Positions 719-16,770 are shown, numbered from the stretch's first letter. The stretch is DNA of 64,000 bases from Octopus sinensis (GCF_006345805.1 NC_043022.1:19468001-19532000); one strand, 5' to 3'. Notes: generated from the letters alone by a model not told the origin. A program made the numbers and translations.

Positions 719-754
<36 letters not shown>

Positions 755-1032
755 TTGCATGTAAGTATGTGTTTATATATGTATATATATGTGTGTATAT
801 ATATATATTTATGTATATATACATGTGCATATGTATATATGTGTATATATGTAATATATATATATATGTATATATATATATGTATATATGTATATATATA
901 TATATATAACAATTTAGGAATGGCCTAAACAGGCCATTCGTCCACTAGAAAGAGCAGCAGCCATAACTCCAACCGCCAGTAGTGTAATTCGGAATAAGGT
1001 GAAATGAATTTAAAAACATTTACCCTAATTCA

Positions 1033-1132
1033 TCTTTTATACGATGCATCGTTTCAGTGTCTTTAATGATAGACTAGCTTAATTAAATTAATTAAGCTAG
1101 TCTACCATAGGTCACACTTCATCAGTAAAAGA
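1033..1132 (-). ncRNA. Type I hammerhead ribozyme (family A, copy 1)
   Basis: Stem I UCUUUUA/UAAAAGA, core CUGAUGA, stem II AGUGU/ACACU with long inner hairpin, GAAA, palindromic stem III CGAUGCAUCG, GUA cleavage triplet. Confidence 0.85.
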
Positions 1133-1502
1133 AACCTGGGAGAGACGGATAATACGAGGCGACTGTATCAATGCCTCGAGAAATCTGTCTTAAAATTTTC
1201 AAGACCAACGCATTCGCGCCAAACTTATCGGCAGCAATATAAACTGCCGATTCAATCTCAGAATTAGTCAGAAAATTATCAATTAATCAATTTAGGGTAG
1301 CAAAAAATTCAGTAAAAATTTATATCGCTACCAGCGGCCTAATGGAAAAGAGAAAATAGTCAAAGACTAAATATGTATAAATATAACTTTAGGAATGGCC
1401 TAAACAGGCCATTCGTCCACTAGAAAGAGCAGCCATAACTCCAACCGCCAAGTAGTGTAATTCGGAAATAAGGTGAAAATTTAAAAACATTTACCTAATT
1501 CA

Positions 1503-1603
1503 TCTTTTATACGATGCATCGTTTCAGTGTCTTTAATGATAGACTAGCTTAATTAAATTAAATTAAGCTAGTCTACCATAGGTCACACTTCATCAGTAAA
1601 AGA
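1503..1603 (-). ncRNA. Type I hammerhead ribozyme (family A, copy 2)
   Basis: Same motif, one 470-bp unit further along. Confidence 0.85.
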
Positions 1604-2209
1604 AACCTGGAGAGACGGATATATACGAGGCGACTGTATCAATGCCTCGAGAATATCTGTCTTAATTTTCAAGACCAACGCATTCGCGCCAAACTATCGG
1701 CAGCAATATAAACTGCCGATTCAATCTCAGAATTAGTCAGAAAATTATCAATTAATCAATTAGGGTAGCAAAAATTCAGTAAAAATTTATCGCTACCAGC
1801 GGCCTAATGGAATTAGGTAAATGAATTAGGGTGAATTAGGATGAATTAGGGTAAATGTTTTTAAATTTTCACCTTATTTCCGAATTACACTACTTGGCGG
1901 TTGGAGTTATGGCTGCTCTTTCTAGTGGACGAATGGCCTGTTTAGGCATTCCTAAATTGTTATATTTATACATATTTAGTCTTTGACTATTTTCTCTTTT
2001 CCATTAGGCGCGTGGTAGCGATAAATTTTTACTGAATTTTTTGCTACCCTAAATGATTATTGATAATTTTCTGACTAATTCTGAGATTGAATCGGCAGTT
2101 ATATTTTGCTGCCGATAAGTTTGGCGCGAATGCGTTGGTCTTGAAATTTTAAGACAGATTCTCGAGGCATTGATACAGTCGCCTCGTATATATCCGTCTC
2201 TCCCAGGTT

Positions 2210-2309
2210 TCTTTTACTGATGAAGTGTGACCTATGGTAGACTAGCTTAATTTATTTAATTAAGCTAGTCTATCATTAAAGACACTGAAACGATGCATCG
2301 TATAAAAGA
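2210..2309 (+). ncRNA. Type I hammerhead ribozyme (family A, copy 3)
   Basis: tctttta-CTGATGA-agtgt...acact-GAAA-cgatgcatcg-TA-taaaaga. Predicted cleavage after A2302. Confidence 0.87.
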
Positions 2310-2527
2310 TGAATTAGGGTAAATGTTTTTAAATTTTCACCTATTTCCGAATTACACTACTTGGCGGTTGGAGTTATGGCTGCTCTTCTAGTGGACGAAT
2401 GGCCTGTTTAGGCCATTCTAAATTGTTATATTTATACATATTTAGTCTTTGACTATTTTCTCTTTTCCATTAGTTAGGCCGCGGTAGCGATAATTTTTAC
2501 TGATTTTTTGCTACCCTAAATTGATTA

Positions 2528-2559
<32 letters not shown>

Positions 2560-2584
2560 ATATATATATATTATATATATATTA

Positions 2585-4127
2585 TTGTTGTTGGCATCCT
2601 TTTTGTCTCGGGAGACAATGGAGTGCGCATAAAGTAGTCTAGTCCGGCTTTTACATTTCATGTCCTGATACATTTCCTGCTGTGGCTGTGTAGTCCTATC
2701 CTGGACAAACACTCCCTCTGGCAGGTACCGCAAATGTAGCGAATACTGTTCCTGACTGGTTGTAATGCCATAGTTTCTTGTTGACGTATTTTCTTGTCTT
2801 TCCATTTCTCCTCTCTCTCTCTCTCTGTCACTCCTTTGTATTCCCTCTTTTACGGTACGTCGCCAGTCTCCACGGTTGCCGGCAACTGCCTCCAAACCGC
2901 TGATATTGATGTTGCAGGCCTTCATATACCTTTTGCAAACATCCTTGTAACGTAAGAACGGTCTACCCACAGACCTAGTACCCCTAGTAAGCTATCCGTA
3001 GAGTATGTCCTTGGGGATTCTGCCATCTTTCATACGGCTAACATGCCCAAGCCATCTCATACGTCTTTGTGTGAGGAGTGCAAACATGCTTGGTATTCCT
3101 GCTTGCCTGAGGACATCTTTGTTAATGGTATAATTTTGCCATTTGATGCGGAGGATTTTCCGGAGGCAGCGCAGGTGAAAGATGTTTAGGCGACGCTCTT
3201 GGCGTGTGTATAGCGTCCAAGTCTCACTTCCATACATGCCTGGTAGATCTTCATTTTCGTGGTCTTGGTCAGCTTATTGTTGTCCCAAGCTCGTTTGGAG
3301 AGTTGGGCCATCGCAGCAGCTACCTTGCCAATGCGTATATTGCTCTCAGCGTCAAAGGATAGGTTGTAGGTGACGGTAGAGCCAAGATAGGTAAACTTCT
3401 CCACCTCTTGTAATCTGTGGTCTCCAATATGTATGTTTGGGATGTCCGATGTAACCTGACCCATGATGTTGGTCTTCTTAAGGCTGATAGCTAAGCCAAA
3501 TTCGTTAAACGCTTGCTCAAAACAGTTAATGAGTCTTTGGAGGGCTTCTTCTGTGTGTGATACCAGAGCGGCATCATCAGAAAATAGCATCTCCTTGATC
3601 AGGACGTTTCTGATTTTGGTCTTGGCACGCAGGCGCCAGAGATTGAACAGTTTCCCGTCACTTCTACTGTGCAGAAACACTCCATCATCTGATGTCTGAA
3701 AGGCATGTGAGAGTAAAGCGAGAAGAAGATGCCAAACAATGTAGGAGCAAGGACACAACCTTGCTTTACCCCGTTTTTTTATTTGGAAGGCGGCTGATGT
3801 TGAACCGTTGTGCTGTATGGTGCCTTACATGTCATCATGGAAAGACTTGATGATCCTCAGCAGCTTTGGTGGACATCCGATTTTTTGGAGCAGGATGAAG
3901 AGGCCTGTTCTGCTTACCGAGTCAAAGGCCTTTGTTAGATCAATGAAGGCCATACATAATGGCATTTTCTGCTCTCTGGACTCCTCCTGAAGTTGGCGTA
4001 TGGAGAATATCATATCGATAGTTGATCTGCTTCTTCTAAAGCCACACTGCGATTCCGGATAGATTCGAGAAGCAAATAGTTGTAGCCAGGCCAGGTTAAC
4101 GCGGGCAAAGGTCTTTCCAACAGTGCT
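2585..4127 (-). mobile_element. RTE-clade LINE, 5'-truncated, frameshifted
   Basis: ORF pieces ESQCGFR..AFIDLTKAFDSV, LFSDD, FTYLGS, YGSETW, RWLGHV; (CAA/TAA)n tail at the 3' end. Confidence 0.92.
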
Positions 4128-4189
4128 TATATATATATATATATGTATGTAGGCATGCATATATATATATATATATATTCATACATATT

Positions 4190-16429: not shown

Positions 16430-16770
16430 TGAAAACAGACAAACTCTTGAAATTCAAAAGACTATTGAACAGCGTCAACCCAAATATACAGTTCAAAATG
16501 GAATACAACCAAAAGGAGCTACCATTTTGGATATACTAATTTAAAAAATAAACCTAAAAATAGAAACAGGCATATTTTACAAAACCACAGACGCCAAACA
16601 ATATCTGTTTAATCCATGCCACCCAAGACACACCAAAACAAACATCCCCTTCAACCTTGCAAAAAGTATATGCACAATAGTGTCAGAAAAAATGCCAGAT
16701 ACTTTTGACTGTAAGAACTCAAAAACACCCTGATTGACAGACACTACTCAATTCAACACATAGAGGATGG
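16430..16770 (+). mobile_element. Penelope RT C-terminal fragment
   Basis: FKMEYNQKELPFxDI..YKTTDAKQYL..CHPRHTKTNIPFNLAKSICTI pattern; frameshifted. Confidence 0.65.

Follow-up and report, generated by a model that had tools for sequence, protein, structure and literature searches.

How might a non-coding repeat that carries a hammerhead ribozyme motif be copied into new places in an animal genome, and by which enzyme? This question is raised by a 64,000-nucleotide stretch of Octopus sinensis DNA (GCF_006345805.1 NC_043022.1:19468001-19532000; hereafter the window, with positions counted from its first letter). At 906-2527 it holds a two-armed repeat array, bounded on both outer flanks by TA microsatellite, in which minus-strand units are followed by plus-strand units with a period of 465-475 bp, about 470 bp. 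An initial annotation, made from the sequence alone, had described a retrozyme-like array of roughly 470-bp units arranged as direct and then inverted copies. Both the period and the layout were borne out (Table 1), and every sequence-level retrozyme feature that could be tested was found, so that the retrozyme-like identity is well supported at that level. We think it probable that the array is one insertion of an animal retrozyme of the kind without long terminal repeats (non-LTR retrozyme), likely mobilised by twin target-primed reverse transcription as carried out by a Penelope-type enzyme.

Direct units followed by inverted ones are the rule in this family and not a chance feature of this locus. 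All 14 complete arrays taken without selection from the best genome hits were two-armed, with minus-strand units on the left and plus-strand units on the right; two more, on contigs 6 and 9, extended past the limits of their loci and were left out of this set. Another 34 arrays were taken since motif hits of both strands adjoined in them, giving 48 in total, and with high-scoring segment pairs (HSPs) shorter than 70 nt ignored we found the same order in every one, the 3' ends pointing outward. Most of the outer flanks printed were (TA)-rich, with the 3' ends facing into (TA)n, and the inner ends were 5'-truncated at variable positions of the unit. The outer ends fell at two fixed sites. Counting unit positions from the predicted ribozyme cut, site A lies at about 139-146 and site B about 90 nt further on, at about 224-238. 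Forty-six of the 48 arrays had one outer end of each kind (26 with A on the left and B on the right, 20 the other way round), and neither an A/A nor a B/B array was seen, a result with a probability of 1e-14 under an independent 50:50 choice at each end. The other two arrays have one atypical end each. These ends lie at L085:~4326 and L077:~3352, at unit positions 73 and 102; the one in L085 is bordered by a run of G and by unrelated sequence, which may reflect a later insertion or a break in the assembly.

We also chose 12 arrays that looked one-directional, here ignoring HSPs shorter than 45 nt and short palindromic cross-hits. In five of them a short second arm was found, with the end type that the first arm lacks; another has an atypical piece, and one (L129) borders an N gap on its left. 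Two arms are therefore frequent, not universal.

The places where the arms meet are informative in their own right. In most arrays the junction shows an overlap of 0-5 nt, and the inner end lies within the long stem II palindrome of the hammerhead (described below) in 19 of 48 arrays against 9.3 expected (P 0.0009), or in 17 of 48 when another boundary rule is used (P 0.0065). Run-off at the ribozyme cut was considered as a further source of ends and rejected: 7 of 96 inner ends appeared by eye to lie within 11 nt of the cut, and under a uniform maximal-extension rule the enrichment was not significant (4 of 96 arm ends near the predicted cut against 2.2 expected, P 0.19). Eleven array-private substitutions were present in every unit of both arms, compared with 86 singletons and 8 partial cases; that of the window is an A at 2267, where the family has G, and it occurs in all three units that cover the position and in both arms. 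Because such substitutions are common to both arms, we infer that the arms of an array derive from one template or from identical templates.

We compared this footprint with the one left by Penelope-like elements (PLEs). According to Craig et al. 2021 (PMC8557442), PLE insertions consist of partial tandems next to which lies a copy that is inverted and 5'-truncated; they carry a 30-40-bp tail, often present at one end only. The same paper reports a bias of PLEs towards microsatellites, with (TA)n preferred by Naiads, which occur in Octopus and other cephalopods. In the octopus genome itself, where a first look gave 5,029 GIY-YIG candidates, we found a resident PLE family with a 781-aa open reading frame (ORF) that combines a reverse transcriptase (RT) with a C-terminal GIY-YIG domain; its copies are 97-100% alike, and it is apparently intact. 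Its ends are of two kinds, plain in (AT)n or lengthened by about 35 nt. Loci L120 and L126 each contain a short two-armed insertion of this PLE that has one end of each kind, with the minus arm on the left and the plus arm on the right, and the ends of a third pair lie at query positions 379 and 400. Since these features are common to both elements, the footprint of the retrozyme is that of the resident autonomous PLE. At L120:1066-1902 and L126:812-1587 the inner ends are nearly symmetric (3497/3499 and 3489/3488 of the query) around a perfect central palindrome, unlike the retrozyme arrays, in which the two inner ends are unrelated; this symmetry may hint that a snap-back route is used by the PLE itself.

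In the route that we propose for the retrozyme, genomic arrays would be transcribed as multimers. In these, adjacent hammerheads would form a double hammerhead by base-pairing of their palindromic stem III, with cleavage after A17, or after C17 in the sister subfamilies. Ligation of the product of about 470 nt would then give a circle with extensive internal pairing. Nicking of a (TA)n tract by a PLE enzyme acting in trans would leave two TA-rich DNA ends; these would base-pair with sites A and B, both AU-rich, on one template, and both cDNAs would be extended for one to five units before their 3' ends were joined by 0-5 nt of microhomology, preferentially in the palindrome of the stem II hairpin. 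A single monomeric circle, which offers one A and one B, agrees with the A/B rule. In the window, the right arm begins 5 nt 3' of the predicted cut site, behind a stutter, and spans one uncut site; a plus arm that stops 5 nt short of the cut in this way hints at a partly processed linear template, but genome-wide the enrichment of arm ends near the cut is not significant, as given above. That the A/B rule and the private substitutions together reflect two reverse transcriptions that a Penelope-type enzyme began next to each other on one small ribozyme RNA, probably circular, with the stem II palindrome also serving as the preferred place where the cDNAs are joined, is a tentative proposal that we regard as possible and somewhat doubtful.

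The retrozyme assignment leans on the hammerhead. Three type I motifs lie in the 3.4 units, and the core, three helices and a cut site were found in all three, with CTGATGA starting at 2217 (+), 1125 (-) and 1596 (-). Each motif reads stem I UCUUUUA, CUGAUGA, stem II, GAAA, the palindrome CGAUGCAUCG, U-A, the cut and stem I UAAAAGA; at the DNA level, GAAA is followed by the palindrome CGATGCATCG and then by T-A at the predicted cut. In motif 3, stem I pairs 2210-2216 with 2303-2309, the core CUGAUGA occupies 2217-2223, GAAA 2287-2290 and stem III 2290-2301. The 7-bp stem I (TCTTTTA/TAAAAGA) and the 10-nt palindromic stem III named in the initial annotation thus stand, and 4 + 3 more pairs are possible for stem I across two bulges. 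As a hairpin, the stem III palindrome would give merely A-U and 3 bp around a UGCA loop. Stem II begins with 5 pairs (2224-2228 with 2282-2286) and a 5 x 5-nt internal loop, beyond which we recovered the hairpin of some 19 bp that had also been noted there. The features of a type I core (CUGANGA...GAAA, A15.1-U16.1, H17, open helix I) are all present, and the core is invariant in 42 distinct units except for one single-copy gap. The 126-nt hammerhead region folds at z = -5.7 against shuffles, and a hammerhead-shaped fold lies within 1.4 kcal/mol of the minimum free energy (MFE). Animal type I hammerheads with a weak helix III are described as behaving as dimers (PMC7229834, PMC7761336), and for two copies of the present motif folding predicts a double hammerhead whose stem III is intermolecular and 12 bp long (-89.9 against 2 x -38.0 kcal/mol).

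The rest of the unit agrees with this assignment. The complete cut-to-cut monomer at 1040-1509 (-) is strongly self-paired, with an MFE of -141.6 kcal/mol (z -7.6), and its antisense folds at z -6.3. As the initial annotation had it, the units lack ORFs: the longest stop-to-stop frame in 905-2528 is 64 aa. Unit GC is 35%, that is, below 50%, and a tRNA scan found none. The arms are inverted arrays of units and not LTRs; no dedicated search for primer-binding site (PBS) or polypurine tract (PPT) motifs was made.

A check of copy number, proposed with the initial annotation, gave at least 1,199 exact hammerhead 3' halves in the genome, on many contigs, and none for reversed control patterns. A search with the unit, in which 40 of 1,552 first-look candidates were scored, returned at least 277 matches, again on many contigs and 89-97% identical to the copy in the window. 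The mean minor-letter frequency among 42 distinct full-length units is 1%, and with copies diverging by about 1% the family is therefore young. Stem III occurs genome-wide in two paired forms, CGATGCATCG (594 exact counts) and CGTTGCAACG (605), and the unpaired combinations A..A and T..T occur 0 times and once, respectively. This is one A-U/U-A swap between subfamilies, first hinted at by contigs of other organisms and confirmed by these exact pattern counts. When the structure was imposed on 32 distinct hammerhead segments, 97.2% of cells paired, against 25-44% with slid partners. Both partners have changed in three pairs, of which two belong to the long hairpin (C-G/U-A and U-A/U.G/C-G) and the third is the one in stem III; stem I shows wobble-compatible changes alone. 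These patterns argue that the long stem II is real and maintained by compensatory changes. Contigs assembled from four sequencing runs of uncertain kind also show the family in three other organisms, at about 90% identity (runs X7, X8 and X11, with window 1840-2528 as query); one of these runs has summed word depths in the hundred-thousands, and the family is probably abundant in related species.

The initial annotation had also suggested looking for linkage to a full Penelope ORF, and the outcome was negative: none was found in the window, nor by sequence similarity among the PLE loci examined, a search that covered a small part of the 5,029 GIY-YIG candidates. A 3'-end sequence that the unit might have in common with an autonomous PLE was not found among these loci. 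A candidate partner sought through the base of helix II with a short-loop pattern was rejected, as the pattern occurred in two places, both in an unrelated repeat. The two copies of that repeat, at L063:~1500 (-) and L064:~1500 (+), read CTGATGA-AGTGT-(A/G)ATG-ACACA-GAAAC and have the helix II base of the retrozyme hammerhead but a 4-nt loop; elsewhere in the L063 and L064 loci we found no BLAST similarity to the unit. Two RT remnants lie in the window. One, at window 16438-16688 (+), 14 kb away, is a 250-bp PLE RT fragment that is 60-65% identical to residues 438-522 of the 781-aa protein. The other, at 2600-4178 (-), lies directly beyond the right microsatellite and is a decayed RT fragment with RVT_1 in two broken frames; an additional TA/TG microsatellite lies at about 4130-4180. 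As a PLE partner the fragment at 2600-4178 was rejected, since it has no tblastn similarity to the 781-aa PLE protein, and for this reason it is probably a LINE-type remnant (long interspersed nuclear element).

Several observations weigh against the account given here. With respect to geometry, 34 of the 48 arrays were preselected for a strand switch, and 5 of the 11 evaluable arrays among those that looked one-directional have a single detectable arm. The A/B rule also suits a linear multimer on which a protein complex would keep the two DNA ends at neighbouring A and B sites. With respect to the enzyme, the unit shows no similarity, beyond TA-rich ends, to the 781-aa PLE family (four 10-kb loci) or to 12 other GIY-YIG loci. 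The hammerheads, which the initial annotation had called intact, carry A-U and not the usual G-C at position 10.1/11.1 in the window; across the hammerhead segments this position is A-U in 10 and unpaired in 21 of 31, with U, A or C at 11.1. Predicted ribozyme activity may be low because of this position, which sister subfamilies have as A.A or A.C and the window as A-U. Perreault et al. 2011 (PMC3088659) describe 10.1-11.1 as the most conserved helix pair after 15.1-16.1, and also report a functional U.U variant there. Rfam hammerhead models gave no match at the gathering score nor at E <= 10, likely because of the 49-nt insertion in helix II, and the element was absent from every sequencing run on record as RNA. 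Finally, the covariation comes from very few independent events (subfamily splits), and the 32 segments were picked with a pattern requiring the core.

Some of these points would suit other explanations. If the retrozyme-like element had been copied by an RT from outside the PLEs, for instance that of a LINE with L1-style twin priming, its likeness to PLEs would be convergent. Two-armed geometry is indeed the expected product of L1 twin priming, as Ostertag and Kazazian reportedly described in 2001, an RVT_1 fragment unlike PLE adjoins the array at 2600-4178 (-), and sequence similarity to PLE was not found in the loci examined. We nevertheless consider this unlikely: the extension at one end (B versus A) and the insertion into (TA)n agree with the tail and the preference for microsatellites reported for PLEs (PMC8557442), the resident PLE family directly shows both, and the neighbouring RT fragment is parted from the array by a microsatellite and is itself decayed. 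It is also quite improbable that the array is an inert, satellite-like relic with a dead hammerhead, spread by unequal crossing-over, inversion or segmental duplication. The non-canonical 10.1/11.1, the missing Rfam match and the absence from runs on record as RNA would agree with such a relic; against it stand outer ends that are fixed at 48 places with different flanks, always (TA)n, together with variable 5' truncation, copies only 1% divergent, a single unpaired stem III combination among 1,200 copies and compensatory changes in the hairpin. Nor would DNA-level growth yield A/B ends.

The inverted arms and the AT-rich target might instead recall a DNA transposon, either a miniature inverted-repeat transposable element (MITE) or of the Helitron type, with the arms as terminal inverted repeats. 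Arms that contain several units and are unequal in length, inner junctions that fall anywhere and outer ends that differ (A versus B) make this very improbable, as do the single-armed cases among the one-directional-looking arrays (5 of 11 evaluable); neither a transposase nor Helitron-type ends were seen on reading the sequence, and no formal search for them was made. One scenario named at the outset as fatal to the annotation, an assembly artefact in which one unit was duplicated and flipped by the assembler, is hardly credible. The many 1-nt indels in the window units do suggest noisy long-read sequence. However, the same architecture recurs at dozens of loci, the two-armed layout being found at 48 other or unrelated places with different flanks; the units inside the window differ from one another, and the private A at 2267 is present in all three covering units and both arms.

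The features of the array in the window are collected in Table 1. The left arm is 5'-truncated at its inner end at unit position 164. Many 1-nt indels are the main mark that distinguishes the window copies from the family, and these are possibly assembly noise. Within a GC-rich stretch (window 2010-2012 and 2468-2490), both plus-arm units have GCG where the minus-arm units and all contigs compared have CGC, and one plus-arm unit also has a small duplication (TTAGTTAGG); either post-insertion change or assembly noise would account for these differences. The unit further contains TTAGGG 12 nt past the cut and CCCTAA at site B (window 1846-1851, 2314-2319 and 2514-2519, with minus-arm equivalents). 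These telomere-like hexamers could pair with each other and may be due to chance; in endonuclease-less PLEs, reverse-complement telomeric repeats adjoin hammerheads (PMC8557442).

Table 1. Features of the two-armed array and its flanks, in window positions; a slash marks where an arm stops.
Feature	Position	Strand	Basis
Left flank, imperfect (TA)n/(TG)n microsatellite, insertion target	720..905	no strand	
Left arm, 1.93 units, 3' end outward, stops at fixed site A (..CCTAAATTGTTAT/ATAT)	906..1812	-	
Filler between the arms, 25 nt, partial repeats of unit positions ~7-23 (GAATTAGGG-type stutter)	1813..1837	+	
Right arm, 1.47 units, ends at fixed site B (..CCCTAAATTGATTA/ATAT)	1838..2527	+	
Right flank, (TA)n microsatellite	2528..2585	no strand	
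Complete cut-to-cut monomer, 470 nt, 35% GC	1040..1509	-	
Hammerhead motif 1, predicted cut between 1040 and 1039	1033..1132	-	read from sequence
Hammerhead motif 2, predicted cut between 1510 and 1509	1503..1603	-	read from sequence
Hammerhead motif 3, predicted cut after A2302	2210..2309	+	read from sequence
Long stem II hairpin, 19 bp (2234-2252 with 2258-2276), 5-nt loop	2234..2276	+	fold
Equivalent long stem II hairpins	1066-1108 and 1536-1579	-	

What the family offers is a clean and countable footprint: insertion into (TA)n, a pair of arms, and fixed outer ends of two kinds that always differ. An apparently intact resident PLE leaves the same footprint, and the question of the mobilising enzyme therefore becomes testable; the model predicts a PLE partner whose 3' end holds a CCTAAATTG-type motif. 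If twin priming on a single RNA is the correct reading, it would be the first sequence-level account of how an animal retrozyme is copied back into DNA, and it would explain the one-sided tail of PLE insertions. The hammerhead appears able to hold a 49-nt helix II hairpin and a 10.1/11.1 pair other than G-C and yet be kept by compensatory change, and scans with covariance models may therefore undercount such variants.

Retrozymes themselves are already known. Non-LTR retrozymes were defined by Cervera and de la Pena 2020 (PMC7229834), and Li, Clavereau and Pollet 2026 (bioRxiv 10.64898/2026.07.22.740005) connect retrozymes with the pseudo-LTRs (pLTRs) of PLEs; in the available text of one review (PMC7761336), the repeats of animal retrozymes have no motif that reveals a mobilising autonomous element. 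Our element resembles the metazoan non-LTR retrozymes of these accounts in its tandem non-coding units, each with a type I hammerhead, its lack of LTRs, its GC below 50%, its thousands of dispersed copies and its strongly self-paired monomer, and also, as far as sequence alone can tell, in a weak helix III that favours dimeric cleavage and in co-occurrence with PLEs. Its unit of about 470 nt exceeds the 170-400-nt circles of PMC7229834 and falls inside the 51-972 bp range of bioRxiv 10.64898/2026.07.22.740005. It is unlike known retrozymes in the 49-nt hairpin insertion in helix II, with which it escapes Rfam, and in a 10.1/11.1 pair that is not G-C. Two-armed arrays, fixed A/B ends and (TA)n targets are not described for retrozymes in the available text of PMC7229834, PMC7761336 or bioRxiv 10.64898/2026.07.22.740005; the word 'inverted' occurs 0 times in that of the first and solely in a reference title in that of the last.

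With the type I hammerheads of newt and salamander satellite 2 and of PLEs it shares a short, dimer-capable helix III with a palindromic loop (PMC7229834, PMC7761336), and because of that loop two motifs are predicted to pair into a double hammerhead. It differs from them in the 10-nt length of the palindrome, for which a 12-bp intermolecular helix is predicted. Plant LTR retrozymes (PMC4918200) are likewise non-autonomous, and their hammerheads yield the circular RNA intermediates that we predict here. As described in the same source, they have type III hammerheads in LTRs, PBS and PPT, 4-bp target-site duplications and mobilisation by Gypsy elements, none of which was seen here. We found no literature on an octopus or cephalopod hammerhead of the present kind; supplements might list cephalopod hammerheads.

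In L1 twin priming, reverse transcription of one RNA starts from both DNA ends of the target, and the resulting inverted copies stand head-to-head, with 5'-truncated inner ends joined by microhomology. The retrozyme arrays depart from this pattern in that the two primers sit at AU-rich sites that are internal and defined, one of each kind every time, the arms contain several units, and the enzyme is likely a PLE RT with a GIY-YIG endonuclease. We found no literature linking twin priming to PLEs. Unlike PLEs, the element has no ORF and no sequence similarity to the PLE copies examined, its 'tail' measures about 85-95 nt against 30-40 in PLEs, and its hammerhead combines a complete palindrome in helix III with a helix II that is very long, whereas PLE hammerheads are minimal and without helix III (PMC7761336). 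Like PLE insertions (PMC8557442), its arrays combine a partial tandem with an inverted 5'-truncated copy, a tail at one end and a bias towards (TA)n.

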